A stretch of 64,000 nt of DNA from Candidatus Nomurabacteria bacterium (GTDB lineage Bacteria; Patescibacteriota; Minisyncoccia; Phycocordibacterales; UBA9973), in the NCBI GenBank assembly GCA_016699085.1, contig CP064958.1:604619-668618 (forward strand), given 5' to 3'. The notes beneath the pieces were generated by a model. The model did no database searches and was not told the DNA's origin. It was given only the letters and a program-made list of their open reading frames with translations. This document shows positions 14,059 through 31,466 of the stretch, one piece after another (position 1 is the first letter of the stretch; the number at the start of each line of letters is the position of its first letter). Both the position numbers and the translations under genes were made by a program.

Positions 14059-15519
14059 ATGGCGTCATTTGAAGAATTACAACAGGCACGCAAACAGAAA
14101 CTCGACCTACTTATTACAGGCGGTGTTAATCCATATCCAGCATCATCAAAACGAGATACACGAATCGTTGATATTGGTGCGCAATTTGCATCCCTAGAAA
14201 AAGAGCAAAAAACTATCACAATTGCAGGTAGAATCCTTTCTCTGCGAGGACAAGGGGCAATCATATTTGCAAATATTACTGATGGTGGAGCTATATTTCA
14301 GCTGCTTTTCAAGCGTGATGTACTTGGTGATGAAGTATTATCATTTTTTGAAAGTACGATTGATATTGGAGATTTTATCGATGCAACGGGGACTGTTTTT
14401 TTAACAAAAACTAATCAACAAACACTCCAAGTCTCATCATGGCAAATGCTCACGAAGAGTCTTGCCCCACTTCCAGAAAAATGGCATGGGCTTGAGAATT
14501 ATGAAGAGCGGTTCAGAAAACGTTACTTAGATTTACTCTTGAATCCAGAAGAAAGAGAGCTTTTCATAAAAAAAGCAAAGTTCTGGGAAGTGACAAGAAC
14601 ATTCCTCAAAGAGCGAGGATTTTTGGAAGTCGAAACTCCTACACTTGAAATCACAACAGGCGGTGCTGAGGCAAGACCATTTAAGACTCATCACAATGAT
14701 TTTGATCTAGATGTCTATATGAGAATTTCCGTAGGAGAGCTATGGCAGAAACGCCTTATGGCTGCTGGCTTTGAGCGGACATTTGAAATCGGAAGAGCAT
14801 ATAGAAATGAGGGCTCGAGTCCTGAGCATGTTCAAGAATTCACAAATATGGAATTTTATGCAGCTTACATGAATTTGGATGAAGGCAAAAAAATGGTAAG
14901 AGATTTATATATTAAAATCGGGAAAGAAGTATTTGGCAAAACAATTTTTGAGACGCGTGGTCATACATTTGATTTAGAGAGTGAGTGGGCTGAAATTGAT
15001 TATGCTCAAGAGATAGAGAATCGGACAGGTATTGATATATTCTCTGCGACTGAAGATGAAATGATTGCAAAACTGACATCGCTTGGCGTTACATACGAAG
15101 GCAAAAATAGGGAGCGATTGACTGATTCCTTATGGAAATATTGCCGCAAGCAAATAAGCGGGCCTATATATCTTATTAATCATCCAAAGCTCGTTGCTCC
15201 ATTATCTAAAACAAATCCACTTGATCCAAGAAAGACTGAAATGTTCCAAGTTATTATTGGGGGGAGTGAAATAGGGCGCGCTCATGCTGAGCTTAATGAC
15301 CCGATTGATCAGCGAGAGCGTTTCGAAAAACAGCAAACACTTGTTACTGAAGGTGATGAAGAAGCTATGATGGCTGATTATGATTATGTCGAAATGCTTG
15401 AACACGGCATGCCGCCGACATTTGGCTTTGGTTTCGGTGAACGATTCTTCTCATTCTTGGCTGACAAACCTATTAGAGAAACACAACTCTTTCCATTAAT
15501 GAAGCCAAAGGAAAAATAA
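14059..15519 (+). CDS. lysS: Lysyl-tRNA synthetase, class II.
   Basis: Class II motifs (FLEVETP; ERTFEIGRAYRNEG; GGSEIGRAHAELNDP; HGMPPTFGFGFGERF). Confidence 0.95.
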   Translation: MASFEELQQARKQKLDLLITGGVNPYPASSKRDTRIVDIGAQFASLEKEQKTITIAGRILSLRGQGAIIFANITDGGAIFQLLFKRDVLGDEVLSFFESTIDIGDFIDATGTVFLTKTNQQTLQVSSWQMLTKSLAPLPEKWHGLENYEERFRKRYLDLLLNPEERELFIKKAKFWEVTRTFLKERGFLEVETPTLEITTGGAEARPFKTHHNDFDLDVYMRISVGELWQKRLMAAGFERTFEIGRAYRNEGSSPEHVQEFTNMEFYAAYMNLDEGKKMVRDLYIKIGKEVFGKTIFETRGHTFDLESEWAEIDYAQEIENRTGIDIFSATEDEMIAKLTSLGVTYEGKNRERLTDSLWKYCRKQISGPIYLINHPKLVAPLSKTNPLDPRKTEMFQVIIGGSEIGRAHAELNDPIDQRERFEKQQTLVTEGDEEAMMADYDYVEMLEHGMPPTFGFGFGERFFSFLADKPIRETQLFPLMKPKEK

Positions 15520-15565
15520 AAAAGCACTCTATATCAGAATGCTTTTCTTCTCTTAACTAAATAGA

Positions 15566-16450
15566 TCAGTAAACAAAATCTGTAACGGGTGTGCAGATAT
15601 TTTCTCTTTCCGTTATAATTTTCATTGCCTCAAAAACCATTCGATGCCCTGCGCACTGTGTCTTAATCTCGCAGGAGGGCAACATATAGTGAGAAAATAA
15701 ACTTATTTCTCCTAACCGGTCCACCATTGTGTGGGATAAAAATTTTCTTTGCAATTCGTCAGGGCTTATTTCTTCATCGGGCCACACAACAATTTTATGA
15801 TACTCAAGATTGAATAATCTTGATATAAATTTGAAAAGGTTTGAAATCCCCTGAGGTCCAACTGGAAAAATTTCCGCAATAAGTTCGTCCGTTACTGTCC
15901 TACTTGCTCTACCTTTGACTGACAATTTTTTGTAGTCAATTGATACATTTAATTTAGTCACTTCGTGATTCGCAGGACGTATTTCAACAAACTTATAAAG
16001 TCCATTTTCCCTTAGACTTAGTGGTCCGTATGAATTTATAAATGAAAGATATGGAACTTCGTTATTAGTTATTTCTGCATGTTCCATTATTTTTTCAAAC
16101 ATTGTTCCTGAAGTTAGGTACGGAGGCCATGTGCTTGCTGAAATTGCAATACTATCAAGTCCCGTGAATCGTAGTGCTCCAATATGTTCGTAAATAAATA
16201 ATTTTTTCTTCCCATATTGTAAATAAATATTATGCAACTTTGAAATTTTTGCAATTCGATAATCTATTGGGATATATTTATAAGTGTTTTTTTTGGAGGT
16301 AGGTATTTTCCAGAAAATACCCCTTTCTCCATTAGGCATTGGTTCAAACATTATCCAGGCTTCTCCTCCAAAAGGGTTTTTTCCTAGTATAGGAGTCACA
16401 GGTTCTTTGAGTATGATCTGTTTCATTGTCAATTTTTTATTATAATACAA
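15566..16450 (-). CDS. LpxC-like UDP-3-O-acyl-N-acetylglucosamine deacetylase family protein.
   Basis: Conserved catalytic/zinc-ligand blocks align to LpxC: EHIGALRF (E-H), HTMVDRLGE (H-x3-D), CAGHRM (G-H). The true start may be the internal MKQIILK. Confidence 0.6.
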   Translation of the reverse strand: MYYNKKLTMKQIILKEPVTPILGKNPFGGEAWIMFEPMPNGERGIFWKIPTSKKNTYKYIPIDYRIAKISKLHNIYLQYGKKKLFIYEHIGALRFTGLDSIAISASTWPPYLTSGTMFEKIMEHAEITNNEVPYLSFINSYGPLSLRENGLYKFVEIRPANHEVTKLNVSIDYKKLSVKGRASRTVTDELIAEIFPVGPQGISNLFKFISRLFNLEYHKIVVWPDEEISPDELQRKFLSHTMVDRLGEISLFSHYMLPSCEIKTQCAGHRMVFEAMKIITERENICTPVTDFVY

Positions 16451-16508
16451 TTTTTATTTATTTTTGTCAAAGTTTCGTTACTTCAAGTTATCCACAGGGT
16501 ATAGCTTT

Positions 16509-16537
16509 TTGTATTGTGGGAGAAAGTGGAGTATAAT
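16509..16537 (+). promoter_or_regulatory. Putative sigma70-type promoter of the dcw (mraZ) operon: -35 TTGTAT (16509-14), 17-nt spacer, -10 TATAAT (16532-37).
   Basis: Read directly; perfect -10 hexamer and 17-bp spacing upstream of mraZ. Confidence 0.5.
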
Positions 16538-16560
16538 CACATGCAGTGGGATTAAGTGGG
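16516..16560 (+). promoter_or_regulatory. MraZ-box-like operator: four GTGG(G/A) repeats with 10-bp phasing (16516, 16526, 16546, 16556).
   Basis: gtggg-agaaa-gtgga ... gtggg-attaa-gtggg, overlapping the promoter spacer and 5' leader; MraZ is known to bind direct TGGG repeats with 10-bp periodicity. Confidence 0.5.
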
Positions 16561-16572
16561 AAAAATGTTTTT

Positions 16573-17007
16573 ATGCTAATCGGACAATACTCGCATACAT
16601 TGGATGAGAAAAATCGCATATCGCTTCCTGCCAAGTTTCGTAGGGAAATGGGGAAGAAAGTTATTCTTGCGCCTGGACTCGACCAATGTATAGCGATGTA
16701 TACCGAAAGCGAATGGAAACGTGTTTCCGCGAAGTTGGGTGATTCCTCGGTGTTAGCTTCAGACAATAGAAGCTTTAGCCGGTTCATGTTTGGTGGAGCT
16801 GTAGAAACACAACTAGATGGAGCAGGCAGAATCCTCATCCCAGATTTTTTGAAAGAACGAGCAAATCTCAAATCAAAGGTAATTGTTATCGGTGTTCAAA
16901 ATCGCATAGAAATATGGAATGAACGTATCTGGGAAGACTACAAACAGCAGATAGATGCAAAAGCCGATCAATTAGCAGAGAAATTGGGGCAGCTTGGTGT
17001 CTTATAA
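16573..17007 (+). CDS. mraZ: Transcriptional regulator MraZ.
   Basis: Two SpoVT/AbrB-like halves with DEKNRISLP and DGAGRILIP (DxxxR motifs); start chosen at ATG 16573. The ORF is open from GTG 16546. Confidence 0.9.
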   Translation: MLIGQYSHTLDEKNRISLPAKFRREMGKKVILAPGLDQCIAMYTESEWKRVSAKLGDSSVLASDNRSFSRFMFGGAVETQLDGAGRILIPDFLKERANLKSKVIVIGVQNRIEIWNERIWEDYKQQIDAKADQLAEKLGQLGVL

Positions 17008-17893
17008 CATGCATACAAGTGTTCTTTTACGCGAAGTTATAGATGGTTTGGCGATACAAAAAGGAGATATTGTCGTCGATGCAACATTAGGCGGTGGTGG
17101 TCATGCTGAAGCAATACTAGACGCATTTGGAGACAGTATTACGTTTGTTGGTTTTGATGCTGATAGTAGTGCAATTGATCGAGTAGGGCAGAGACTACAA
17201 CAGTGGCATCTGCATTTAATCAATGCAAACTTTAGATCTATGCAGGTAGCATTGGAGAATGTAGGAATTTCAAAAATAGACAGAATTATGTTTGATCTTG
17301 GTATTAGCTCTTTTCAATTAGAAACAAGCGGGCGAGGCATATCATTTAGTAAAGATGAGCCACTCGTGATGACACTCTCGGACACGCCTACAGAAGAAAC
17401 TTTAACAGCACGAGATATTGTTAATGCTTGGGATGAAGAAGCAATTGCCAATGTGCTCTACGCTTACGGCGAGGAAACATATGCAAGACGGATCGCCAAA
17501 GGTATCGTTACTGCCCGGAAAGTGAATCCTATAGAGACAACATTTGCTCTCGTTGAGATCATCAAGCAAAGCGTTCCAAAAGCTTACACCTATGGGAAAA
17601 AGCATTGTGCAACGAAGACATTTCAAGCCTTGAGGATTGCAGTCAATGACGAATTAGATACACTGCGCACTGGGTTAGAGACAAGTTTTGAACTTTTAGC
17701 AAGTGGTGGACGAATGGCAGTAATTTCATTTCATAGTCTAGAAGACCGAATCGTTAAACATTTTATATTAGAAAAAAAAGAAGCAGGCATAGGATTTTCA
17801 TTACATAAAAAGCCGATTGAACCATCCGAAGAAGAGATCAAAAGTAATCCACGTTCTCGAAGTGCAAAATTAAGAATTTTAGAAAAAAAATGA
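16994..17893 (+). CDS. rsmH: 16S rRNA (cytosine1402-N4)-methyltransferase RsmH (MraW).
   Basis: HTSVLLREVIDGL...DATLGGGGHAEAIL SAM-binding N-terminus; follows mraZ. Confidence 0.95.
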   Translation: MVSYNMHTSVLLREVIDGLAIQKGDIVVDATLGGGGHAEAILDAFGDSITFVGFDADSSAIDRVGQRLQQWHLHLINANFRSMQVALENVGISKIDRIMFDLGISSFQLETSGRGISFSKDEPLVMTLSDTPTEETLTARDIVNAWDEEAIANVLYAYGEETYARRIAKGIVTARKVNPIETTFALVEIIKQSVPKAYTYGKKHCATKTFQALRIAVNDELDTLRTGLETSFELLASGGRMAVISFHSLEDRIVKHFILEKKEAGIGFSLHKKPIEPSEEEIKSNPRSRSAKLRILEKK

Positions 17894-18231
17894 CCTTACA
17901 CCAAGTACACACCAATACACATGCATTAGCAAAAGCCAGAGGCAAGCAGCTTTTTTATATACTCATTTCGGTTATTGTCCTGGCTTTCTGTGTCTATGTG
18001 TATTTTCTCGGCAGAACAGTGTTTGCTGTCGTCGTAAGGAAAAATATTGAGAATAATATCCGCACAAAAGTTACTGCTATTAGTGAGTTAGAACTTGCTT
18101 ATTTGTCAAAGAATAATACGATTGATCCAAATTTGCTGCAGAAAGAAGGATATGTTGCGCCAGAAAAAATGTATTTCATTTCAAGAGAAAATACCGTTGG
18201 ACTAGCATCAGTCAAGGGCTATGACCTCTAA
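17890..18231 (+). CDS. ftsL: FtsL-like cell-division protein (single TM helix).
   Basis: 113-aa bitopic protein between rsmH and ftsI, the canonical ftsL position; sequence itself is uninformative. Confidence 0.5.
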   Translation: MTLHQVHTNTHALAKARGKQLFYILISVIVLAFCVYVYFLGRTVFAVVVRKNIENNIRTKVTAISELELAYLSKNNTIDPNLLQKEGYVAPEKMYFISRENTVGLASVKGYDL

Positions 18232-19942
18232 TTTTTTATTGCGCCTGAGAATACTTGCTGGTTTTTTTATTGTCCTCATTATGCTTATTGCACTGAGGCT
18301 TTTTAGTGTTCAGATTGTGCATAGTGAGGATTATAAAGATCGAGCTGATCGTCAATACGCTGCACCTGCCAGCTCTCTTTTCGAGCGAGGTAGTATATTT
18401 TTTACTGAGAAAGATGGATCGAACGTAAGTGCAGCAACATTGAAGACATTATATAAGGTAGCAATTAAGCCTAAAGAAATCAGTGATAGTGATGCGACGT
18501 ATGCATTTCTCGAACCGTATGTATCACTAACACGTGAAGAATTTCAAAAGAAAGCAAAAGCGATTGATGATCCATACGAACAAGTTGCCAGTCGATTGCC
18601 TAAAAGTGTCGCTGATGCTATTGAAGCTAAACATTTGCCAGGTGTCTATGTATATAAAGAAAAAATTAGATTTTATCCAGGTGAAAGCCTGGCGGCGCAG
18701 GCTTTGGGATTTGTAGCTTATAAAGGTGATGAACTCTCTGGTCGTTACGGTATTGAGCGAATGTATAATGCGATCTTATCCCGTGACAGTAGTACAACTC
18801 AGGTGAATTTTTTCGCAGAAGTATTTTCAAATATTACAAAAACCATTTTTAAAAATCCTGAGGCAGAGGGTGATATTGTACTGACACTTGACCCCGCAAT
18901 ACAAGCAACGTTTGAGAAAACCTTACTCGAAACTAAGACCAAATGGAATGCGGACGCTATTGGTGGCATCGTTATTAATCCGATCGATGGTGCAATTTAT
19001 GCCATGGCATATGCGCCAACCTTTGACCTAAATGCATTTCAGAGTGTCGAAGATCCACTCTTGTATGCAAATCCAAATGTTGAGAACGTCTACGAATTTG
19101 GTTCTGTGATTAAGCCTCTAACGCTTTCTGGTGGTCTCGATACTGGTGTGATCAAGCCTACAACAACCTACGATGACAAGGGTTTTGTGATACTAAGCGG
19201 CAAACAAATAAATAACTTTGATAAAAAAGCTCGTGGACCAGGAACCAGCATGCAAGATGTGCTCAATGAATCATTAAATACTGGCTCTGTCTTTGTTATG
19301 CAAAAAATGGGTCGTGAAAGTTTTAAGAAATATATGCTCTCGTTTGGTATAGGAGACAAGACTGGCATTGACCTGCCAAACGAAACCAGCGGCCTCATAT
19401 CGAATCTAAAGACCAATCGTGATCTCGAGTATGCCAATGCTGCCTTTGGTCAGGGAATCGCTATTACACCGATCGAGGCTGTACGTTCATTTTCAGCTAT
19501 TGCAAATGGTGGACTGATGATTACACCTCACTTGGTGAGCCAAATCAACTACACCAATGGCACGCATACAGAAATTGAACCAAAGGCAGGTACACGTATC
19601 TTGAAGCCTGAAACTTCTCTCGCGATGACAGAAATGTTAACCATTGTGGCTGATACAATGATGAAAACATATAACGAATCACTGCCACATTATAGTATTG
19701 CGGTTAAGACTGGGACGGCTCAAATTGCCAAAGCTGATGGTACTGGCTATATCGAAGGCCAGAATCTGCACTCTATATTCGGCTACTTTCCTGCGTATGA
19801 TCCGAAATTCCTAACTTTTGTCTATATGAAAAACCCAAAAGGTGCGAAATTCTCAGCGCAAACCTTATCTGGGCCGCTTCTGAGTACAGCGTCGTTCCTA
19901 CTTAATTACTACGACGTAACACCGGATATTACTTCCGAGTAA
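18221..19942 (+). CDS. ftsI: Peptidoglycan D,D-transpeptidase FtsI (PBP3-type).
   Basis: SVIKP (SxxK), SLN (SxN), KTGTAQ (KTG) motifs; N-terminal TM; dcw-cluster position. Confidence 0.9.
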   Translation: MTSNFLLRLRILAGFFIVLIMLIALRLFSVQIVHSEDYKDRADRQYAAPASSLFERGSIFFTEKDGSNVSAATLKTLYKVAIKPKEISDSDATYAFLEPYVSLTREEFQKKAKAIDDPYEQVASRLPKSVADAIEAKHLPGVYVYKEKIRFYPGESLAAQALGFVAYKGDELSGRYGIERMYNAILSRDSSTTQVNFFAEVFSNITKTIFKNPEAEGDIVLTLDPAIQATFEKTLLETKTKWNADAIGGIVINPIDGAIYAMAYAPTFDLNAFQSVEDPLLYANPNVENVYEFGSVIKPLTLSGGLDTGVIKPTTTYDDKGFVILSGKQINNFDKKARGPGTSMQDVLNESLNTGSVFVMQKMGRESFKKYMLSFGIGDKTGIDLPNETSGLISNLKTNRDLEYANAAFGQGIAITPIEAVRSFSAIANGGLMITPHLVSQINYTNGTHTEIEPKAGTRILKPETSLAMTEMLTIVADTMMKTYNESLPHYSIAVKTGTAQIAKADGTGYIEGQNLHSIFGYFPAYDPKFLTFVYMKNPKGAKFSAQTLSGPLLSTASFLLNYYDVTPDITSE

Positions 19943-20058
19943 TTACAAATTTCAAAAAAAATGTTATAGTGTTTTCGCAATTTGGCCCTATCGCCCCCGC
20001 CTGCCCTCATGAGTACACGAGGGAGCGGGCAGGTAACGGCTAACGCATTAAAATCGTT

Positions 20059-20295
20059 ATGTACTTTGTCTATGTACTTAAAAGCAAAAAGGATGAGAAA
20101 CTTTATTATGGGTTTACAGAAAATATAGAAAAAAGGTTACATCAACACAATAATGGTGAAGTTCGATCTACGAAATATAGAATTCCACTTCAGTTGCTTT
20201 ATTATGAGAAAGTGGATAATCTTACAGAAGCACGAAAACGCGAAAAGTATTTTAAATCTGGATTTGGTCGAAAATATATAAAAAGTAAACTTTAG
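20059..20295 (+). CDS. GIY-YIG nuclease family protein (UPF0213/YhbQ-like small GIY-YIG).
   Basis: MYFVYVLKSKKDEKLYYGFTENIEKRLHQHNNG...; GIY-YIG motif spacing and conserved R and E positions. Confidence 0.85.
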   Translation: MYFVYVLKSKKDEKLYYGFTENIEKRLHQHNNGEVRSTKYRIPLQLLYYEKVDNLTEARKREKYFKSGFGRKYIKSKL

Positions 20296-20300
20296 CATTT

Positions 20301-20375
20301 GGCCCTATCGTCTAACGGCTAGGACAGATCCTTCTCAAGGATTAAATCAGAGTTCGATTCTCTGTAGGGTCACCA
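20301..20375 (+). tRNA. tRNA-Glu (anticodon CUC), CCA encoded.
   Basis: Hand-folded cloverleaf: acceptor GGCCCUA/UAGGGUC, D arm GUCU-AACGGCUA-GGAC, anticodon arm GAUCC-UUCUCAA-GGAUU (U33, anticodon CUC, A37), 4-nt variable loop, T arm CAGAG-UUCGAUU-CUCUG, discriminator A, CCA. Confidence 0.8.
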
Positions 20376-20428
20376 GTTGCCAGATCTAGCAATTTTTCCC
20401 CCTTGATTAATATTTAAATTGAACTTTA

Positions 20429-21541
20429 ATGATAGCGAGATTTAAATGTCAGATAATACCAAGTTTTTCAATTCCAGTACCGGTATATTCGGTACTAGAA
20501 CCCATTAAGACTCACTTGGGTATAATGGAGGTTGTAATTCATTCACCGCTACAGGCAGAGGCTGAGCTCCCTGATCTAAGTCTGCCGCGACAGGTATTAC
20601 CAGGAAAAACACCACCTTATTTTTCACCAAAAACTCATCCTGTTGTCTCAAATACGAAGATTAATGACGAGGAAACCATAAAAGCTAATTTGATTTTTAT
20701 CGATTTTAAGAAGGAGAGCTTTAGGCGATTTCGTAAAGAACCAAACCCAACTGACCCTTCGAAAGAACAAGTTGAAGAAATTTTATTGCTTTATATTTCT
20801 TCGATTAGAACGATCCTTCAAGGTGGTCAGATAAAGTTTAAACCCATAGACTCAATTCCTTGGATGATTGAATATCTGAATGATGACTACTCCGAACTAC
20901 CCATAGATGAGGCATTGATTAGGGGCGCATTCAATTTTAAATCTGAATTTAATATTTCCCCAATAGATGGGCCTTTATGGGAGCAAATTAAATTGCTCGT
21001 TATGACCAAAGAAAAACCACACATTTGGGAGACTTTATATTTAAATGCGTTATCAGTTTTACCAGATAGCGGAGCAGCCATAACCCTTACGTTTGCATCA
21101 TTAGAAAATCTTATTAACCACGCTTTAGAGTCTCTTGTAGTAAAAAGTAGTATAACCCCTGAGGTTTGGGATTGGATTAAAATTCCGTCAAATGAAAAAC
21201 GTAATTGGTTCAAGGAACCATCCGTGATTGAGCAATACACAAGTATTTTACACATGGTTAGTGGGAAAAATATACAAGAAGATAAGGAATTGTCTGAGCT
21301 ACTTTTAGAGATCAAGAATGTAAGAAATAATTTTATTCATGAAGGTTTACTTTTAAATTCTAAGAAGAAGGAGTTATCTGATACTGAAGTTGAAAATCTT
21401 GTAAGAAGTGCCTCAAAAATTATTGAATGGGTTGAAAGTTATTTACCTGAAGAAAAGCGCCGCAGGAAAAACACGACAAAAATAAATTTTGAGGACTCAA
21501 TAATTTATGACACAACACAGCTTAATGATCGCTCTAATTAA
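20429..21541 (+). CDS. Hypothetical protein with a C-terminal HEPN-like motif (R-x4-H: VRNNFIHEG at about nt 21320-21346); candidate RNase/abortive-infection-type effector. The true start is likely downstream of 20429.
   Basis: Rx4H motif in an all-helical C-terminal segment; no other recognisable domain; located next to a tRNA and an XRE regulator. Confidence 0.5.
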   Translation: MIARFKCQIIPSFSIPVPVYSVLEPIKTHLGIMEVVIHSPLQAEAELPDLSLPRQVLPGKTPPYFSPKTHPVVSNTKINDEETIKANLIFIDFKKESFRRFRKEPNPTDPSKEQVEEILLLYISSIRTILQGGQIKFKPIDSIPWMIEYLNDDYSELPIDEALIRGAFNFKSEFNISPIDGPLWEQIKLLVMTKEKPHIWETLYLNALSVLPDSGAAITLTFASLENLINHALESLVVKSSITPEVWDWIKIPSNEKRNWFKEPSVIEQYTSILHMVSGKNIQEDKELSELLLEIKNVRNNFIHEGLLLNSKKKELSDTEVENLVRSASKIIEWVESYLPEEKRRRKNTTKINFEDSIIYDTTQLNDRSN

Positions 21542-21774
21542 TTTTTGTATCTGTTTCTTTTTCTCATTTCTCTTAACGCCTCCCCATACAACTGATGTGG
21601 ATACACCCCATAGAGCACACAGAGCCTAAACAAGTACTCTGTTCCTGGATAGTAATGTCCTTGCTCCCATTTAGAAACTTGGCCTTCATCTGTAAATCCT
21701 AGGTACGTTGCCACGTCTTTCTGTGTAAGGCCATTGAGCTTCCTAGCTTCTCGTAGTTTGTTTGGTATAGGCAT
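21538..21774 (-). CDS. XRE-family helix-turn-helix transcriptional regulator (78 aa).
   Basis: LREARKLNGLTQKDVATYLGFTDEGQVSKWEQG is a typical Cro/C1-type HTH. Confidence 0.8.
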   Translation of the reverse strand: MPIPNKLREARKLNGLTQKDVATYLGFTDEGQVSKWEQGHYYPGTEYLFRLCVLYGVYPHQLYGEALREMRKRNRYKN

Positions 21775-21777
21775 AGG

Positions 21778-22110
21778 TTATAGCGAAGGGAACCTACCTA
21801 AGAATGGTAAGTCATTATCAAGGTTCTCCAGCTTCTCCTTGGTCTCTTTTTCCTTCTGCTCCCGCTCCCAAGCATCTACTTTCTCCTGAGCCTTCTCAGC
21901 AACACCAGGGAGTGACAAAGCTTTTAAATCCGCTATACTGCTTTGTACTGGTCTCTTATTTTCTAGCAATTCGGAAATCCAGACATTTGGATCACAAACG
22001 GCGCAAAGCCAAATAAACTGCTTTATTTGCGAGCCGTTCGTGAAGCCGCAGTCATGTCGCTTTGCGACAGACGAGGCGGGGTCGCAAGTACTTACGTAGA
22101 ATTTGAGCAT
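21778..22110 (-). CDS. Hypothetical protein (110 aa), co-oriented with and immediately upstream of the XRE gene (3-nt gap).
   Basis: ORF only; acidic/Lys-rich C-terminus; no recognisable motif. Confidence 0.4.
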   Translation of the reverse strand: MLKFYVSTCDPASSVAKRHDCGFTNGSQIKQFIWLCAVCDPNVWISELLENKRPVQSSIADLKALSLPGVAEKAQEKVDAWEREQKEKETKEKLENLDNDLPFLGRFPSL

Positions 22111-22199
22111 AGCGAAAAATTATACTTAGTAACTTGTGACCACATAAACAAAGTACGCGCAGCGTACAAAATAATGGCACCTAAACCCATAATCAAAAC

Positions 22200-23432
22200 A
22201 TGGAAAATCAAAACTTTAGCAACGGATCAGCCAAAAAGAATGAAAAAGAAACTCAAAACAATGAGGTGTCTTTGGGTGCAGATAGTGTTTCAAAGAAAGA
22301 ATTAGGTAAAAAGGAAAAAATAACCCTGGAAATTAATGGGCAAACAATTGAAGCAGTAAAGTATTATTTTGAATACCCTGAAAAGATTCAAAAAGAATCA
22401 GGGATTTTGGGGTATGAGAGAACAAAGATTTCAATAGATGAAAAGTTGATAAGTGACGAGATGGAGCATTATGAGCAATCTAAAATAATTACAGATTTAC
22501 TTGTTACTTTATCAGATGGAGAATATCCTGAGACATGTGTTACGCATAAATTCGGAGCTTATGGTTCTCATGAAGGATTCAAAAAAGGGTTTGCTGAGGA
22601 TAAATTTTTTGTTCAAAAAATATATGATTTAGATCGGATAGAAAAACTAAAAGATGAAATGGATCCAAATTACATATTTAATAACAATGGTGCAAAATTA
22701 GACATTTTTAATAAAAAAGACAACAGCCCCTATTCTGAAAATACCTATGGAAAAATTCCTGAACACCAAGTCTATCATGAAGGAGTACTCTTTTATGAGA
22801 CTACCCCAATTGCAAAAATTCCAAAAAAAATCTTAAGCAATGAGAGTGAATTTTACATTAAAAAAGATTTTTACCTAGAACCAGGGAATTTTTGGCATGG
22901 TGTAGGAATAAAAGATATTGGATTTGGTTTTTCAGTTCTCAATGATCCTTTTTTCTTAAAATATATTGAAGAATCCATTTTACTTGATCCTGAACCTTTA
23001 TTTAAATCTGAGGACTCTACCACAAAGGATATATTTTGTATTTATCTTATAAATGAGTACCATCGACTTGGTTACTCTTTTATTAGTAACTCATCTGATG
23101 ATAAAACTATCGATGAAATAAAAAGAAAATTTATTTTAAAAATAGATGAAATTGCAAAAGAATTTTTAAAAAACAAGATATTATCCAATGGTGATTTATA
23201 TAATTCTGAAATTAGTATGGGTAAGTATGCCACAGAAAAATTTTTAGGGCGTTCGGGTGCTTTTAAAGGAAATTATTTTGTAGGTAATGAAATAAAAATT
23301 CCAATTTTTATGAATCATGACAATATTCCCCAGCTTTCGTGGGGTCACGCAAAATATGCTCATTATTTCAATGATAAAGGTTTAAATTTTTTCAAGTTCA
23401 AACACGCAGACTATTTACCAAAGAAAGAGTAA
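22200..23432 (+). CDS. Hypothetical Lys/Asn-rich protein (410 aa) in a markedly AT-rich segment.
   Basis: Long ORF, composition distinctly more AT-rich than flanking housekeeping genes; no confident domain assignment. Confidence 0.55.
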   Translation: MENQNFSNGSAKKNEKETQNNEVSLGADSVSKKELGKKEKITLEINGQTIEAVKYYFEYPEKIQKESGILGYERTKISIDEKLISDEMEHYEQSKIITDLLVTLSDGEYPETCVTHKFGAYGSHEGFKKGFAEDKFFVQKIYDLDRIEKLKDEMDPNYIFNNNGAKLDIFNKKDNSPYSENTYGKIPEHQVYHEGVLFYETTPIAKIPKKILSNESEFYIKKDFYLEPGNFWHGVGIKDIGFGFSVLNDPFFLKYIEESILLDPEPLFKSEDSTTKDIFCIYLINEYHRLGYSFISNSSDDKTIDEIKRKFILKIDEIAKEFLKNKILSNGDLYNSEISMGKYATEKFLGRSGAFKGNYFVGNEIKIPIFMNHDNIPQLSWGHAKYAHYFNDKGLNFFKFKHADYLPKKE

Positions 23433-23696
23433 ATAAATTCTTCAAATCTATAATGCTACGGTTCATTTTTCATATTTACAAACATATTTTCTCAAGATGA
23501 CACAATGAAGGACTTGAACTTTTTTAATTCTTTGTTGCATTTTGGATTATCTTTTATCTGAACCTTCATTAGTACAAGCAGCTGCAATGACTACTTTTTA
23601 CATTGTGGTACTAAAATCTCTAATACTGCTTTTTTTCCTTAAGTTCACCATGATATAAAAATGTCCATTATAAAATGGTTATCCACAGCTAAATTC

Positions 23697-23725
23697 TTGC
23701 AAGAGAACGAATGTTCTCCTATACT
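23697..23725 (+). promoter_or_regulatory. lexA promoter with embedded SOS (Cheo-type) box: -35 TTGCAA (23697-702), 17-nt spacer containing AGAACGAATGTTCT (23704-23717), -10 TATACT (23720-25).
   Basis: GAAC-N4-GTTC inverted repeat read directly; it sits exactly in the spacer between plausible -35/-10 hexamers, about 205 nt upstream of lexA. Confidence 0.6.
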
Positions 23726-23731
23726 ATATTC

Positions 23732-23920
23732 ATGAGCAAGCATGAATATTTTAAATCAATACATAAGGAACTTAAAAAGATCAATAAAGTTATTGATGAG
23801 AAAATTATTCTTGGCAAGAGCTACAAAGAAGAATCTATGCGTCATAAATTTCTCCTTACACAAATCCGCAAATTGCAAAATAGTCAGATGATGTATAAAT
23901 TCATGACTTTTCTATTCTAA
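23732..23920 (+). CDS. Possible small protein (62 aa from ATG 23732) co-transcribed with lexA. The ORF-track start at 23711 lies upstream of the predicted transcription start.
   Basis: ORF ends 1 nt before the lexA ATG; Lys-rich; no homology recognisable. Confidence 0.3.
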   Translation: MSKHEYFKSIHKELKKINKVIDEKIILGKSYKEESMRHKFLLTQIRKLQNSQMMYKFMTFLF

Positions 23921-23921
23921 T

Positions 23922-24497
23922 ATGTTTGAAACATACAAAAACAAAATAGTAGCGTTCTACAAATCCAACAAGCGTATGCCAAGTTATTCAGAAATTATGA
24001 AAATTACCGGACTCAAATCAAAGAGTCCGGTATTTAAGCTCGTCGGCAAGCTCGTCGAGCAAGGATTCATTGGGAAAGACGCAAACGGTAAACTTATCCC
24101 CAAGCAATCATTTAACAGCATTACACGACTTTCTCAGACAGTATCTGCCGGATACGGTGCAGCTGTGGAAGATGAGGTGGGGGAAAAGGTTGACCTTGAT
24201 GATTGGCTTGTCAGAGATAGTAGCAAGACGTTTGTACTTGAAGTAAATGGAGATTCGATGAAGGATGCCAGCATTCTCGATGGTGACAGTGTCCTTGTTG
24301 AACGGACGACTAACTTCAAAGATGGTCAAATCGTTGTCGCGCTTTTAAACGATGGCTATACAGTCAAATATCTCCGGAAAACACAAAAGTCTATGTATCT
24401 TGAACCAGCAAACAAAAAGTATAAACCCATATATCCAACTGAAGATAATCAAATAGAGCTTGTCGCTGTGGTAAAGACAATCATACGAGAGTTATAA
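23922..24497 (+). CDS. lexA: LexA repressor (winged-HTH plus S24 peptidase domain).
   Basis: C-terminal S24 catalytic Ser in GDSM and Lys in TVKYL; N-terminal wHTH; SOS box upstream. Confidence 0.85.
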   Translation: MFETYKNKIVAFYKSNKRMPSYSEIMKITGLKSKSPVFKLVGKLVEQGFIGKDANGKLIPKQSFNSITRLSQTVSAGYGAAVEDEVGEKVDLDDWLVRDSSKTFVLEVNGDSMKDASILDGDSVLVERTTNFKDGQIVVALLNDGYTVKYLRKTQKSMYLEPANKKYKPIYPTEDNQIELVAVVKTIIREL

Positions 24498-24586
24498 AAC
24501 ATAAAGTAAAACAAAAGTATCTTGACAGGATATGTAAGTAGAGTATTCTATTTTCAGAAAGCTATTTAAATCCAAAAACTACTAGT

Positions 24587-24958
24587 ATGGCCACATCCAG
24601 CAAGCTCAGTGATAAAAAGAAAATAGTAAAAATAAAAAACTGGTATATGTATGCAATTTGCATCCTTGTTGCCACTACCTTAGGTGTGTATAGCTATCAA
24701 TATTTTTGGGAAATATATCCTAAAAGCGATAATCCATATAGCTATATGATATTTATATCAATGCCTATTGGACTGTTGTTTAGTCTAATATTACTCATGG
24801 CAATTGCCGATTGGAGAGATGTGTTTATGGTTACTATTTCGAGACGCATGTACTATATGATAAAAAATATTTTAGATAGGATTATTTTCCTACTAACAAT
24901 AATTGGTATAACATTGTTCCTACTAATTTTCTTTACACTTATTGTTATTTTAATTTAA
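24587..24958 (+). CDS. Hypothetical integral membrane protein (3-4 TM helices).
   Basis: Hydrophobicity pattern only. Confidence 0.45.
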   Translation: MATSSKLSDKKKIVKIKNWYMYAICILVATTLGVYSYQYFWEIYPKSDNPYSYMIFISMPIGLLFSLILLMAIADWRDVFMVTISRRMYYMIKNILDRIIFLLTIIGITLFLLIFFTLIVILI

Positions 24959-24999
24959 AAAACTTCTGGTATTTCCAGAAGTTTTTGTTTTGATAACGA

Positions 25000-25470
25000 T
25001 TATTGTACTAATTTGTACATTTTAACATGTGGCTCATCACGTAATAGAAATATGTCAGATTGTATAGACCAGCCTAATTTTTTATAGAATCCTATCGCTG
25101 ATTGTCTGGCATTACACCAAAATTCATGAATATTTGTTTCGAGAATTATTATTGTCTCAGCGGTTATTAGTAATTCTTTACCGATTCCATACCCTTGGAA
25201 CTGAGTATGTGTTGCCATGCCGCGCAGTTGATATGCAGGTTTTTGTTCCCAAACGTTTAAAATAAATGTGGCGCATCCAAGGATATTTCCTATAGGGTTG
25301 CCAGTCGGATCTTGCCAGTAAGCTCCAAAATGATAGGTTGTACTCTCATTATCGCCTATAAATATGGCCTCATCTTTTGGCAGGCCTTGCCTTAGAATGT
25401 GATGCCTAAGATCAAATATTGCTTCAATATCTACTTTTATTGCAATACGAGCAAGTATGTTATTTTCAAC
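25000..25470 (-). CDS. GNAT-family N-acetyltransferase.
   Basis: Acetyl-CoA-binding motif A (QLRGMATHTQFQGYGIGKELL); start chosen at MVENN. The ORF is open to 25518. Confidence 0.7.
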   Translation of the reverse strand, partial: VENNILARIAIKVDIEAIFDLRHHILRQGLPKDEAIFIGDNESTTYHFGAYWQDPTGNPIGNILGCATFILNVWEQKPAYQLRGMATHTQFQGYGIGKELLITAETIIILETNIHEFWCNARQSAIGFYKKLGWSIQSDIFLLRDEPHVKMYKLVQ

Positions 25471-25546
25471 CATTATAAATTTTTCATTACAATACCATAT
25501 CAAAAATAATATGTACACCTAATGAGATGTAACAAAAATACCTGTT

Positions 25547-26797
25547 TTGCGTTACTATATAGGCATGAAATCACATACACGAAACATATTGTTACTGGCA
25601 GGTGTTGTTCTCATTGCTCTATTTTTTATAATAAGCAATAAGTACAACTTGCCTGTAGCTATACCCAATGAATCTGAAGATATACCTACAATAAAATTTG
25701 ATGCGCCAATCTTTATTTCACCAATTAGTGATCTAGGGTTAGATACTAGTACGCTGTCAGGTTATTTTTCTCTCGCTCCTGATGGCTCAAAAATTCTTTT
25801 TAATGGTATGGGAACAGATGATGAAGTGCATACTGCTGTTGCGCATTTGGATACAGGTAGTGTTGAAGATTTAGAAGGGAATTTACTTTCTGGTTGGGTA
25901 GATAGCGATCTGGTTGTACTCACAAGTAATACTGATATTGTGTTGCATGATTTTAAGACTGATAAGATATATACGATACCGTCCGATGGCAACATGTACC
26001 AAGGCTCACTTTCTCCAGATAGGAAGTGGTATGTCTATCACACACAACAAGGCTTGCGACTGTTCAATCTAGATACTCAAGCGGTCACTGTGCTTTCAAC
26101 TAATAACTACGATGGCGCACATGCATGGTATGCAGACTCAAAACATATCCTCGGGTATAGAGGGACCGATGAAAATCTATTTGAAGCAGGCAAAGGCAAG
26201 CAGTTGGCTATCTGGGACATAGAGACCAAAACATATCAGGATCTACATGTAACACTTCCTATTCATACGCTCAAATATGTTGAATGGCTTGTTCCAGACC
26301 ATATAGCAAGAGTTGTGGCAGGATATGATGACGGATCACATGATTACATCGTCAATATTGATAAAAACATGGTAGTTGATCTAGGTGATACATCAGGGAT
26401 GCTTATGGGTGGTATTGCTATTGATCAGAGTCTGGGCTTGATTGCCTATGTCGGACCAACATACTCAATAAGCGGGGACACAAAAAATAGCGCTAAAGTG
26501 TACACATTTGATGGGGTCATACAGAAAGAAGTACCATTTGCATTTAGTCCTGATCCGAATGCATATGAGAGTAGGGAAAGTGTACGAATACTGAGTGATC
26601 ATGAACTTATATATATTAAAAAAAATGCAGACAAGGGTAGTGCGGCAACAGCATCAATCATAAAACTAGACCTTACAACTCAGGAAGAAATCACACTCCG
26701 AGTAGTTGATGCTTCGGTAAAGCAGATTGCAGTATTGCCTGATCATACAGCTTGGATTACCGCAGATGCGAAGCAGTTTTATATCGAGAAGCTATAG
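25547..26797 (+). CDS. Membrane-anchored β-propeller-like protein (TolB/PD40-like repeats), function unknown.
   Basis: N-terminal TM; repeated D-G-S/K...F/Y β-strand motifs (DGSKILF, SPDRKWYVY). Confidence 0.55.
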   Translation: MRYYIGMKSHTRNILLLAGVVLIALFFIISNKYNLPVAIPNESEDIPTIKFDAPIFISPISDLGLDTSTLSGYFSLAPDGSKILFNGMGTDDEVHTAVAHLDTGSVEDLEGNLLSGWVDSDLVVLTSNTDIVLHDFKTDKIYTIPSDGNMYQGSLSPDRKWYVYHTQQGLRLFNLDTQAVTVLSTNNYDGAHAWYADSKHILGYRGTDENLFEAGKGKQLAIWDIETKTYQDLHVTLPIHTLKYVEWLVPDHIARVVAGYDDGSHDYIVNIDKNMVVDLGDTSGMLMGGIAIDQSLGLIAYVGPTYSISGDTKNSAKVYTFDGVIQKEVPFAFSPDPNAYESRESVRILSDHELIYIKKNADKGSAATASIIKLDLTTQEEITLRVVDASVKQIAVLPDHTAWITADAKQFYIEKL

Positions 26798-26877
26798 TAT
26801 CAAATAAATATACAAAATGATATTTGTGTGGTAGAGTATTTGACACGTTCTTTAAAACAATAAAAAAGGAGGATATA

Positions 26878-27555
26878 ATGCCGAAAAGGTTAGATTTAAG
26901 CAATAAGGCATTTTTTGAAATTAAAAATTGGCTAGTAGATACATTAAAATATCGACAAGTTGGTAGAACAGAATTTCAAAAGGACTTTGAAAGATTGGGA
27001 TTAGTTCCGCCAAGACCCAGAGAAGGTAGGGAAGTAGGTTTTGTATTAACAATGAATGGCTATACAGCAAAAGTCTGGCCAACGTATGATATTGTACATG
27101 GAAAATTTATAGAAAGTGATGCTGCCTGGTTCCTGATTTGCAAGGGAGACAACGCTCTTTATTTTTCTGGGCCAATTCATAGAACAGAGCATTTCGTTCA
27201 GACCCTAGTTTCACTTGCCTGGATTGGTAGAATACGATTGGAAAATTGGCCACTATGCCCAGAAGAAATGTGTAGAGCAACTATGCAAATTGGAACTGGA
27301 AAGAAAAATTTAAAACAAAAGTATCTCTATTGCCCGCACAAAGAATATCATTTAGATGGTGAGGTTAGAATGGAAAGTTGGGACTATGGTATGCCCTGGC
27401 AATTCTATCCAAAAGCACATAAGTTTGTTTTGGAAAGGAGAAAGAGGAGAGCTCGTTGGTATAAAAAACTCAAACAAGATGGCAAAGAACCAAACCAAGC
27501 AATGAAGAGGAGAAAAAAGTGGAAAATAACGAAACCACAAAATATTAGACATTAG
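26878..27555 (+). CDS. Hypothetical Cys/His-containing protein with a highly basic C-terminal tail (possible zinc-ribbon nucleic-acid binder).
   Basis: Strong SD AGGAGG 5-10 nt upstream of ATG 26878; C-P-E-E-M-C ... Y-C-P-H cluster; KRRKKWK tail. Confidence 0.55.
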   Translation: MPKRLDLSNKAFFEIKNWLVDTLKYRQVGRTEFQKDFERLGLVPPRPREGREVGFVLTMNGYTAKVWPTYDIVHGKFIESDAAWFLICKGDNALYFSGPIHRTEHFVQTLVSLAWIGRIRLENWPLCPEEMCRATMQIGTGKKNLKQKYLYCPHKEYHLDGEVRMESWDYGMPWQFYPKAHKFVLERRKRRARWYKKLKQDGKEPNQAMKRRKKWKITKPQNIRH

Positions 27556-27579
27556 ACCCGTATGAATATTACGGGTTTT

Positions 27580-28509
27580 TTATTTATTCTTATGCAACCA
27601 CATGTATATATCTTCAAGAGCTTTGACAGCATCTCCTACGGCGATGTTGTTCTGATGGTAAAGGCCATTGGTGACATCGCCGGCTGCCCAAACACCAGAA
27701 ACACTTGTGCGTTGGTTCATAGGATCAACAACAATTTTCTTCTCTTCGTTAAGTGTGACAAATGATGCAACAAAATCTGTATTTGGAATTTGGCCGATTT
27801 CTACGAAAATCCCGCCAGTTGGAAGTGTTGTCTCTTCGTTCGTATTTTTGTCTTTAAATGTAATTGATTCGATAAATTGTGAACCGCTAACTTTCAATAC
27901 ATCAACATTTTTGTAGGCTTTCATGTTTGGATTCGCAAGTACTTTGGCTACCGTCACTTCATCTGCTCGGTAAGTATCGCTACGGTGTAGGAGGGTAACA
28001 CTAGGGCAGTACGCAAGTAATTGTGCTGCAGTTTCAAAGCCAGCATTGCCGCCACCAATCACAACAACATTCTGTCCTGCAAAAAGCGGACCATCGCATG
28101 ATGCACAATACGTAATACCTTTATTCTCATATTCGCTCGCATTCTCTGCCTCAAGCTTCCTTCGTCCAGATCCTGTGACTATGAGGACTGATCTTGATTC
28201 ATACGTTTTGCCATCATCTGTGGTTACATTAAAACCTGAATCAGTCTTGGCAATAGTTGTCACTTTGACGCCTTCAACTAGATCGAGCATGTCAGCTTTA
28301 TACGCAAGGACGTGATTTTTGAGAGTTTTAGCTAGATCGTTACCACTTATTTTTTCTGTTCCAATCCAGTTCTCGATACCTTCTGAGACCGTTGATTGTC
28401 CACCGAATTCGTAGGTGAGCATAAGCGTCTTCAAACGCTTACGAGAAGCATATACAGCTGCTCCCGCGCCTGCTGGCCCGCCTCCTAGTATAAGTAAATC
28501 GTATTTCAT
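27580..28509 (-). CDS. trxB: Thioredoxin-disulfide reductase.
   Basis: FAD motif LILGGGPAGAGAAVYA, redox-active CASCDG, NAD(P) motif VVVIGGGNAG. Confidence 0.85.
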   Translation of the reverse strand: MKYDLLILGGGPAGAGAAVYASRKRLKTLMLTYEFGGQSTVSEGIENWIGTEKISGNDLAKTLKNHVLAYKADMLDLVEGVKVTTIAKTDSGFNVTTDDGKTYESRSVLIVTGSGRRKLEAENASEYENKGITYCASCDGPLFAGQNVVVIGGGNAGFETAAQLLAYCPSVTLLHRSDTYRADEVTVAKVLANPNMKAYKNVDVLKVSGSQFIESITFKDKNTNEETTLPTGGIFVEIGQIPNTDFVASFVTLNEEKKIVVDPMNQRTSVSGVWAAGDVTNGLYHQNNIAVGDAVKALEDIYMWLHKNK

Positions 28510-28550
28510 GACAGAAGTATACCATATGGGTCAATATGGGGAATATAATA

Positions 28551-28576
28551 AAATTCCGCTTTGAAGCGGAATTTTA
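28551..28576 (-). terminator. Intrinsic terminator downstream of ftsZ (10-bp stem AAAATTCCGC/GCGGAATTTT, T-rich tail on the minus strand).
   Basis: Perfect hairpin read directly, followed on the minus strand by an A/T-rich run. Confidence 0.55.
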
Positions 28577-28587
28577 TTTAGGCAATT

Positions 28588-29847: not shown

Positions 29848-29873
29848 AGCAGAAAAGCCAAAAAAGATACAGC

Positions 29874-31037: not shown

Positions 31038-31070
31038 TCGAATAAGAAAAAGAGTAGAACGCTTTCTTTT

Positions 31071-31466
31071 TTAAGCAATAATATGGAAATGTTTTTTCCA
31101 ACGTTCCTCTTCTGTATCCATCTTACTACTATGTTCCATTCCTTTCAAATGAAGCATACCGTGGATAAGTAAATACGCGAGATGCTTTGTGTAGTCTGCT
31201 CCAAGATTTTTTGCTTCTTTTTTAATTAAGCCAAGTTCAAGCATCAATTCACCACTTACAGGAGATAGAGAAAAACTTAGAATGGTTGTTGGTTTATCTT
31301 TTTTTCGAAAGCGAAAATTAAACTTTTTTGAAACAGCGGGAGTGGCGATGATGATTGATAGATCGTATGTTTCGCCTAGGATTGCATTTTTTATAGACAC
31401 CAAAGGCAAGCTTGGAAGCTTGCCTTTGGTCATTGATGAAATAGCTACAGTATCAGTCGTGTACAT
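31071..31466 (-). CDS. ybeY: rRNA maturation endoribonuclease YbeY.
   Basis: HGMLHLKGMEH (H-x3-H-x5-H zinc motif). Confidence 0.85.
   Translation of the reverse strand: MYTTDTVAISSMTKGKLPSLPLVSIKNAILGETYDLSIIIATPAVSKKFNFRFRKKDKPTTILSFSLSPVSGELMLELGLIKKEAKNLGADYTKHLAYLLIHGMLHLKGMEHSSKMDTEEERWKKHFHIIA

Follow-up and report, generated by a model that had tools for sequence, protein, structure and literature searches.

The free-standing GIY-YIG nuclease SegB is a protein of about 220 amino acids (aa), with a DNA-binding part, from the UvrC/I-TevI-like branch. The available parts of two reports place it in the tRNA gene clusters of phages T4 and T6 and describe it as a homing endonuclease that has a 27-bp recognition site, reads the T-psi-C stem-loop motif in tRNA-gene DNA, spreads by homing and drives the duplication of tRNA-containing segments (PMC2330249; PMC13096335). 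For the bacterial Slx1-like GIY-YIG proteins, the available part of a 2006 survey of the superfamily gives vertical inheritance, a non-selfish nature and no known role (PMC1564403). Here we describe a chromosomal locus of a Candidatus Nomurabacteria bacterium, lying in a 64,000-nucleotide (nt) stretch of contig CP064958.1 (hereafter, the window), in which a small GIY-YIG gene stands between a broken partial copy of a tRNA-Glu gene and the intact tRNA-Glu(CTC) gene itself. We consider it likely that two independent accessory elements surround this tRNA gene, namely a selfish GIY-YIG element at 19984-20295 and a strain-variable islet with unrelated cargo at 20375-23649.

SegB is the nearest functional analogue, since its GIY-YIG gene, as here, lies among or beside tRNA genes of many isotypes. 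SegB is phage-borne, whereas the present gene is chromosomal and encodes a bare 78-aa domain of the Slx1/UPF0213 branch, and a palindrome-split pseudo-tRNA is not reported for SegB in the available parts of those papers (PMC2330249; PMC13096335). A minimal domain without auxiliary domains is shared with the UPF0213 proteins EF2693 (1ywl) and BH0048 (1zg2), the best matches among solved structures, yet the available part of the 2006 survey reports neither tRNA-gene residence nor target duplication nor palindromes for UPF0213 proteins (PMC1564403). In kind, the 5' unit would be a free-standing homing-type element with new features.

In the window, mraZ, rsmH, an ftsL-like gene and ftsI (16546-19942) are followed by the pseudo-tRNA with its palindrome, the GIY-YIG gene and tRNA-Glu(CTC), the latter at 20301-20375 being the sole such gene found in the window. 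Because L105, assembled independently, matches window 14977-34958 (20 kb) at 100% identity, the features of the locus are no assembly artefact. The parts of the 5' element and its tRNA are as follows.

19942..19970, plus strand: promoter-like site, ATTACA-17-TATAGT with a TG-extended -10, 13 nt before the pseudo-copy
19984..19995, plus strand: pseudo-tRNA segment, a copy of tRNA-Glu nt 1-12 (nt 11 T>C)
19996..20033, no strand: 38-nt GC-rich palindromic insert, CCCGCC...GGGCAGG, between tRNA nt 12 and 13
20034..20042, plus strand: pseudo-tRNA segment, a copy of tRNA-Glu nt 13-21; end of homology
20043..20058, plus strand: 16-nt leader from the pseudo-copy to the ATG
20059..20295, plus strand: gene for a 78-aa GIY-YIG nuclease, a minimal Slx1/UPF0213-like domain alone
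20301..20375, plus strand: intact tRNA-Glu, anticodon CTC, 5 nt past the GIY-YIG stop codon (ARAGORN; Rfam tRNA, 57.9 bits)

A first-pass annotation of this DNA had marked a direct repeat around the GIY-YIG gene, a broken upstream copy of the 5' part of the tRNA with a GC-rich hairpin insert, and several genes farther on; every feature that it named was found again, at its coordinates or a few bases off. The 14-nt repeat, ATTTGGCCCTATCG, is present as two exact copies (19980-19993 and 20297-20310) and in exactly these two in 64 kb, with a chance expectation of 0.02 and two copies in none of 100 shuffles. A second, 9-nt match, TAACGGCTA, is colinear (20034-20042 and 20313-20321). Alignment with relatives confirmed the broken copy and its insert, and domain searches bore out the GIY-YIG, XRE and R-x4-H calls. 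The 40-nt stretch 19994-20033 has a GC content of 0.72 (window, 0.39) and a minimum free energy of -18.3 kcal/mol, and the 85-nt region around the insert gives a folding z of -2.2. A CCYGCC..GGCRGG hairpin occurs once in the 64-kb window, as this palindrome. Its site, between nt 12 and 13, is the canonical tRNA-Glu site of the family described below, with homologous inserts there in L012, L024, L028, L034 and L037-L039. A function of the palindrome as a transcription terminator was rejected, there being no T-run and no terminator-like site, and both orientations occur.

The promoter-like site ahead of the pseudo-copy is probably the ancestral tRNA-Glu promoter. The motif aaaaTGnTATAnT lies about 10 nt ahead of tRNA +1 in five alleles without a GIY-YIG element (L009, L014, L018, L019 and L020) and before the left pseudo-copy in L012, L023, L029 and L031. 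As the best promoter precedes the pseudo-copy, the nuclease mRNA and the tRNA are probably made as one transcript in the Nomurabacteria Glu group (the window, L012, L023, L029 and L031).

The 78-aa protein matches Pfam PF01541 over residues 1-72 with 53.4 bits (cut-off, 22.6; E = 3.2e-14). Seven residues (Y5, Y16, G18, R26, H30, E62 and K66) are kept in at least 96% of 82 homologues, with the catalytic GIY-YIG positions (Y5, Y16, G18, R26, H30 and the metal-binding E62) conserved at 96-99%. The best PDB matches are 1ywl (4.2e-5), 1zg2 (6.7e-3) and the structure-specific nuclease Slx1 (0.13-0.6), and the Pfam search found no second domain, hence no DNA-binding module; nearest to UPF0213/Slx1 and without an auxiliary domain, the protein belongs to the minimal Slx1/UPF0213-like branch. 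Plasmid and phage collections gave no match at E <= 1e-8, the match to a phage GIY-YIG family being very weak (phrog_5123, E = 0.008). Exact-sequence look-up of this protein, as of the ORF110 product discussed below, returned the same strain only. The open reading frame (ORF) is intact in 79 of the 82 homologous loci and cut off early in the other three.

These 82 loci comprise the window, L012 and the 80 best of at least 452 relatives (47-73% identity) from a metagenome scan with the 78-aa protein; counts of pseudo-copies rest on the 59 loci with an ARAGORN-detected tRNA, and hairpin counts on 198 kb of loci. In all 59, a co-oriented tRNA begins -1 to +34 nt after the GIY-YIG gene. Two further loci, L042 and L093, carry a tRNA-Asn with a group I intron that ARAGORN missed, for a total of 61 out of 82. 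Twelve isotypes are represented: Glu, Lys, Arg, Asn, Leu, Met, Gly, Asp, Gln, Thr, Ala and His. In 39 of 59 loci the cognate tRNA's opening 10 nt are found again 50-220 nt 5' of the ATG, as compared with none of 59 in a downstream control, and chained short matches score at least 18 in 49 of 59 loci versus 10 controls. Starting at +1, or in some cases up to 12 nt farther out in the flank, the pseudo-copy reaches about nt 21-38 (nt 50 in one case) and is split by one to three GC-rich inserts. Named hosts are Nomurabacteria, Yanofskybacteria, Kerfeldbacteria and other Patescibacteria, together with Polaribacter and Saprospiraceae of the Bacteroidota; a cultured carrier is Polaribacter huanghezhanensis (WP_301402668.1). 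The GIY-YIG stop codon falls within tRNA nt 8-10 in L093 and L059.

The inserts are 19-41 nt long, end in CCYGCC...GGCRGG and show a preference for two places, behind tRNA nt 12 in 13 cases and behind nt 21/22 in 16, both of which are D-arm junctions. In the 198 kb there are 69 such hairpins, 54 of them within 150 nt upstream of a GIY-YIG start and eight within 150 nt downstream. Among 16 Glu-type inserts, 95% of stem positions are paired and three pairs show compensatory changes, a covariation that none of 500 shuffles reached. The Glu-type insert is asymmetric, and at the same site it lies forward in 11 cases (the window's own being marginal, 26 v 22) and reversed in four. The two orientations suggest a DNA-level insertion or palindrome and not a strand-specific RNA motif. 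A mirror form also exists, with the intact tRNA upstream, a partial 3' copy downstream and the palindrome in the T-loop (L080, L084 and L044), and L023 has an extra 3' pseudo-copy with a palindrome in the anticodon loop. Across these forms the insertion points are stem-loop junctions of the tRNA gene (D-arm, T-loop and anticodon loop). In L061 (~1400-1885), the GIY-YIG gene has a palindrome-split pseudo-copy of tRNA-Arg(CCT) on either side, and both pseudo-copies precede the intact tRNA, which suggests repeated conversion or duplication.

Three pairs of loci (L065/L067, L090/L091 and L043/L058) hold GIY-YIG copies within protein genes, bordered by 12-15-bp inverted repeats whose ends (CCCTG...CAGGG, TGCCCCG...) look like palindrome ends; a terminal CCTG...CAGG is common to the palindromes and to the inverted repeats of the ORF-bearing copies. 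In L065/L067 (~1480-1800), the element splits a gene for a four-helix-bundle protein, similar to the 23S rRNA intervening-sequence protein, between ...SNIA and EGAARG..., and the reading frame of this host gene goes on either side. In this family, then, the elements lie directly 5' of a tRNA gene, less often 3' of one and rarely in a protein gene, and the family architecture places an intact tRNA on one side and a palindrome-broken partial copy of the same tRNA on the other.

This architecture bears on a reading in which the partial copy is the attL/attR scar of a lost integrase-mediated island or prophage and the GC-rich insert an unrelated repeat, of the repetitive extragenic palindromic (REP) or miniature inverted-repeat transposable element (MITE) kind. 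Partial tRNA gene copies do commonly originate in this way, as the available part of one report states (PMC9897764), and a relic in L010 has a pseudo-copy without the gene. As in integrase-borne islands, a duplicated segment keeps the tRNA intact and a partial copy lies at the far end of the insert. Integrases, however, duplicate the 3' part of the tRNA, whereas the GIY-YIG unit copies the 5' part to about the anticodon loop, its spare copy is regularly broken by palindromes, and it measures 0.3 kb rather than kilobases. No integrase is present in the unit or elsewhere at the locus, and the same layout with a GIY-YIG gene recurs in dozens of unrelated loci. Nor is the palindrome dispersed: the 64-kb window has a single copy, and of the 69 copies in the 198 kb of loci, 62 are no farther than 150 nt from a GIY-YIG gene. 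We regard such a scar as extremely unlikely. With REPs, their REP-associated tyrosine transposases (RAYTs) and MITEs, the elements share short GC-rich palindromes that go with a single nuclease family and can point either way. The GIY-YIG palindromes differ in being nearly confined to the spare tRNA copy by the gene instead of dispersed over the genome, and the enzyme is of the GIY-YIG type and not an IS200-like Y1 transposase.

In L042 (617-1234) and L093 (1730-2020), the tRNA-Asn(GTT) after the GIY-YIG gene has a group I intron in its anticodon loop (RF00028, 82.9 and 61.7 bits), so that one tRNA gene appears to hold two different selfish elements. These two loci are also what could be said for taking the GIY-YIG ORF as the homing endonuclease of a group I intron or other self-splicing insertion in the tRNA. 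The intron there is a separate insertion downstream of the GIY-YIG unit, however, and at our locus an Rfam scan of 19000-25000 (E <= 1) returned nothing but the tRNA, with no Intron_gpI or other ribozyme. The tRNA after the ORF is complete and uninterrupted, and only about 75 nt of the unit lie outside the ORF. The probability of this explanation is close to negligible.

Evidence for mobility comes first from occupancy. The tRNA-Glu(CTC) gene is without a GIY-YIG element in the Nomurabacteria L009, L014, L018, L019 and L020 and occupied in the window, L012, L023 and others, a presence/absence polymorphism at one locus among related genomes. As in the window, tRNA-Glu follows ftsI in L018 and L020, and L018 keeps that order without the GIY-YIG gene. 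On the minus strand of L010 (~1357-1460), a pseudo-copy of tRNA-Glu(TTC) nt 1-16 and 22-37 stands without a GIY-YIG gene about 100 nt before the real tRNA, with a CCCGCC..GGCGGG hairpin farther upstream; it looks like a decayed element. The second line of evidence is a comparison of L047 and L050, in which the ORF is 99.6% and the pseudo-copy, palindrome and leader 97.7% identical, as against 80.7% for the upstream host gene and 66% for the downstream DNA. Between the two loci, identity extends without a break from left-copy nt 8 as far as nt 3 of the real tRNA, and the pair is evidence of lateral spread independent of the flanks. In addition, the left copy in L092 is closer to the tRNA-Asn allele of L059 than to the resident tRNA, one Saprospiraceae contig has two GIY-YIG copies that are at least 90% identical, and switches of isotype, e.g. 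Thr/Ala and Leu/His, are seen at about 70% protein identity. By these comparisons, the elements have a patchy distribution and have spread from one diverged genome to another. A simple single-site insertion misfits both L092 and L047/L050 and is kept merely as one option.

Such empty alleles and the relic in related genomes, as well as a near-identical element between flanks of 66-81% identity, are hard to reconcile with a resident, non-mobile partner of the tRNA gene, such as a repair or processing factor, for which the palindromic pseudo-tRNA would be a regulatory leader, for instance an operator that mimics the target. The autorepression of I-TevI is a precedent for an operator mimicking a nuclease target. 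Tight, co-oriented spacing in 61 of 82 loci, intact ORFs with conserved catalytic residues and protein similarity that follows the tRNA isotype would all suit a resident, as would a pseudo-copy and palindrome conserved like the ORF or better (94% vs 79% between L059 and L092) and a stem maintained by compensatory changes. So would the view, in the available part of the 2006 survey, that bacterial Slx1-like proteins are vertically inherited, one being fused to the tRNA methyltransferase TrmH (PMC1564403). The cognate duplications, however, occur at 12 isotypes, there are copies within genes with inverted-repeat borders, pseudogenised copies exist, and the asymmetric palindrome is found in both orientations, unlike a strand-specific RNA leader. 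We consider a resident partner unlikely and prefer a selfish element.

For such an element we propose the following course. The nuclease would break tRNA-gene DNA in or near the D-arm, or the T-arm in the mirror form, and the occupied allele would serve as repair template, so that the element is copied in. The duplicated tRNA segment would keep the essential tRNA working, and palindromes would disable the spare copy and thereby remove the target site. They would also cut the direct repeats down to tracts of at most 12 nt, which would lessen deletion of the element by recombination. Conversions that transfer a palindrome only would be tolerated in the dead copy only, and this is our proposed reason why palindromes pile up there.

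Quite possibly, although we would not call it probable, the family is an unrecognised class of nuclease elements of about 0.3 kb in Patescibacteria and Bacteroidota, in which an Slx1-like GIY-YIG protein and cognate palindromes colonise tRNA arm junctions. The tRNA would be regenerated from a carried or duplicated segment, the tRNA promoter used and the spare copy disabled by the palindrome; the enzyme would be structure-specific, for hairpin or cruciform DNA, rather than a sequence-reading homing nuclease, and part of the supposedly vertical bacterial Slx1 lineage would be selfish. If true, elements made of a 234-nt gene and about 75 nt more would rank with the smallest known that are selfish and autonomous. 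They would explain why small genes annotated as "GIY-YIG nuclease family protein" cluster at tRNA genes in two large phyla. For the bacterial Slx1/UPF0213 proteins they would supply a first role in biology and, in the palindrome or the tRNA-gene arms, a candidate for the natural substrate. Partial tRNA gene fragments, a source of confusion in annotating tRNAs, also find an explanation in the GIY-YIG elements. For tRNA expression in the genome-reduced Patescibacteria, it matters that the window's sole tRNA-Glu(CTC) gene may be transcribed through a nuclease gene, and there may be technical interest in a nuclease this small that is linked to a short, defined DNA structure. We found no description of the palindrome-split tRNA and GIY-YIG arrangement in the full-text literature, subscription-only papers not being covered. 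The available part of a 2026 survey of tRNA introns in Patescibacteria mentions no hairpins, palindromes or duplications, and the term "GIY-YIG" is absent from its text.

On the other side of tRNA-Glu(CTC), the window continues with ORF370, an XRE-family gene and ORF110 (both on the minus strand), ORF410, an AT-rich spacer, ORF69 and a gene for a LexA-like S24 peptidase. The second accessory element and its genes are as follows.

20375..23649, no strand: 3,275-bp islet at the tRNA 3' end, with TCACC at 20370-20374 and 23645-23649; absent from L106
20429..21541, plus strand: ORF370, with an N-terminal beta-rich domain (1-170) and a helical HEPN-like domain (181-336) with R299 and H304
21538..21774, minus strand: XRE-family helix-turn-helix (HTH) protein, 78 aa (HTH_3 PF01381, E = 6.8e-12), convergent with ORF370, 4-nt overlap
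21778..22110, minus strand: ORF110, 3 nt upstream of the XRE gene; four Cys among its first 40 residues
22200..23432, plus strand: ORF410, of a Patescibacteria-wide family, in DNA of 26-31% GC

Contig L106, from another sample, is 99.61% identical to window 23645-34958, and its nt 1-30 are the last 30 nt of tRNA-Glu, joined straight to GTATATAAAAATG (window 23650 onward). The segment 20375-23649 is therefore missing from a near-identical strain, a presence/absence difference between close strains at the tRNA 3' end that shows strain-level gene flux in a Nomurabacteria population. Like integrase-borne tRNA islands, the islet abuts the tRNA end with a short repeat; no integrase was found among its four ORFs, and the edge repeat is just TCACC(A), short of the att repeats of about 15 nt or more, derived from the tRNA 3' end, that mark such islands. 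Its genes follow ftsI in none of 14 relatives. In the synteny comparison that the first-pass annotation had called for, a Mur ligase gene comes after ftsI in 10 of 13 relatives.

That annotation had joined everything from the first repeat onward into one acquired, tRNA-linked defence or addiction module. Of this, the accessory nature holds for the DNA 3' of the tRNA and not for the GIY-YIG gene and repeats as parts of an islet. The case for a single module at 19976-23432, with the 14-nt repeats as insertion scars, would be that the region is accessory, tRNA-linked and, as had been noted, low in GC (dropping to 0.26-0.31 across ORF410), that a HEPN-like protein adjoins an XRE regulator, and that one ORF370 homologue lies beside CBASS genes. 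The variable segment, however, begins past the tRNA, at 20375 and not at 19976, and the 14-nt repeats are not attachment sites of the islet but belong to the separate, recurrent GIY-YIG element 5' of the tRNA. ORF370, the XRE/ORF110 pair and ORF410 are not together in any other context seen, and no PADLOC system model fits beyond weak HEPN and HTH matches. Because the four islet genes are never linked elsewhere, the idea of one defence module is not supported, and we judge it very unlikely; two independent elements remain our preferred reading.

The proposed HEPN-like C-terminal domain of ORF370 is supported by an invariant R-x4-H motif, by profile matches that are weak for the window protein, and by a model with a helical C-terminal half. 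The product, 100% identical to IPF86_03425, has the motif R299-N-N-F-I-H304. The deposited annotation starts at M33 (338 aa) and leaves out window 20429-20524, yet the N-terminus MIARF, 32 codons upstream of M33, is conserved in homologues of 34-43% identity. The 370-aa start, 53 nt after the tRNA, is thus correct and the annotated 338 aa too short. By an exhaustive profile search, the family numbers 666 clusters (E <= 1e-3), with 349 at the stricter E <= 1e-30; most matches are full-length. In 58 homologues, D152, E226, L288, R299, H304 and G306 are invariant and N300 is kept in at least 90%; of the HEPN families in Pfam, HEPN_RiboL-PSP matches 18 of them (best, 5.7e-7), AbiU2 seven and Apea six. 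For the window protein itself, three independent weak HEPN matches all fall on residues 251-351, and PADLOC models of Csx20/Csx1 match at E = 1e-3 to 7e-3. An AlphaFold2 model from the 58-sequence alignment (pLDDT 90.3; a three-sequence run with pLDDT 51 was set aside) has a beta-rich N-terminal and a helical C-terminal part, with R-x4-H on helix 286-305. The model had no match in BFVD, the ORF370 profile gave chance-level matches only against PDB, and the N-terminal 170-residue beta domain had no match in Pfam, PDB or BFVD.

ORF370 resembles the HEPN proteins of abortive infection and defence (RiboL-PSP-HEPN, AbiU2 and Apea-like; Csm6/Csx1) in a C-terminal domain modelled as all-helical, in the R-x4-H that starts a long helix and in weak profile matches to several HEPN families over one stretch of residues. 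It differs in lacking CARF, MNT or another known partner, and the family is absent from PADLOC. No HEPN partner, whether MNT or another antitoxin, is present; domain searches of the neighbouring ORFs found no MNT or other nucleotidyltransferase domain. Homologues occur in four other contexts, all without XRE, ORF110 and ORF410. In bacteria tuf and rpsJ are usually adjacent; in L001 (2-6267), an ORF370 homologue lies in a stretch of about 5.7 kb between them, with SRPBCC, NUDIX, EamA, Zip and YibE_F genes. In L103 (2593-5315), a 518-aa gene without a Pfam domain shares its last 4 nt with a homologue, and the two may form an operon. In L104 (655-3332), a homologue of 26% identity is convergent to a CBASS pair, CD-NTase and Cap15, the sole defence-island context seen. 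With moderate confidence, our preferred interpretation of ORF370 is an HEPN RNase that acts alone and has a sensor-like domain at its N-terminus, and it is possibly an abortive-infection or defence protein. The islet would thereby add to the defence candidates an uncharacterised HEPN family of at least 666 clusters with a new N-terminal domain.

Several observations weigh against parts of this interpretation. We infer nuclease cleavage, the target site and transposition from sequence, and the 78-aa protein has, by Pfam, no long-site DNA-binding module of a Seg-like homing endonuclease. The intact neighbouring tRNA keeps the presumed target, so self-cleavage must somehow be avoided. Element boundaries are ambiguous among the loci: L047 and L050 have host-specific acceptor parts in both copies, yet the whole left copy of L092 looks donor-derived. 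The nearest protein neighbour shares the tRNA isotype in 42 of 59 loci, which long vertical residence predicts as well. When all loci are taken together, the promoter-like boxes ahead of the pseudo-copy do not surpass those ahead of the real tRNA, and because this comparison did not discriminate, the claim of co-transcription is limited to the Nomurabacteria Glu group. The islet is without an integrase, and it may be either an insertion here or a microhomology deletion in the L106 strain. For ORF370, the HEPN matches of the window protein are sub-threshold (HEPN_Apea, 14 bits versus 24.4), solved HEPN structures match weakly (Csm6 with a probability of 0.57 and E = 0.12), and guilt-by-association amounts to one CBASS neighbour only.

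As for the other islet genes, we propose that XRE and ORF110 form a small regulatory pair in a two-gene unit. ORF110 had no family match and no relatives in viral contigs, and forms a singleton cluster. The ORF410 product is 100% identical to IPF86_03440, and its family has 66 matches across Patescibacteria (Nomura-, Pace-, Moranii- and Woesebacteria), with 19 invariant residues, including Y59, P60, G68, G71, Y72, R74, H116 and H402, and H383 in at least 90%. It looks like an enzyme of some kind. A 36-sequence profile had no match in PDB, and no Pfam family was matched consistently, the 36 members hitting 16 families with one member each (E <= 0.1). Elsewhere, homologues lie beside pth or bipA; family members include those at L003 (10001-11227) and L005 (6804-7997). 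Near the homologue in L005, a 223-aa ORF (2572-3243) with a faint LAGLIDADG_3 match may be a homing-endonuclease relic.

Downstream of the islet and lexA, the window has a minus-strand block of trxB-like, ftsZ, ftsA and ybeY genes (27580-31466). In L010, L013, L014, L015 and L021 the same block lies directly upstream of the counterparts of the 13577-15519 genes and mraZ, and the division-gene neighbourhood appears to be rearranged in this lineage. A 69-aa ORF without a homologue (23711-23920) stops 1 nt before the gene for the LexA-like S24 peptidase (23922-24497), whose product matches the DNA-binding domain of LexA only weakly (E = 0.058). Within that gene, at 24007-24030, lies CCGGACTCAAATCAAAGAGTCCGG, the sole other perfect GC-rich 8-bp hairpin of the window.

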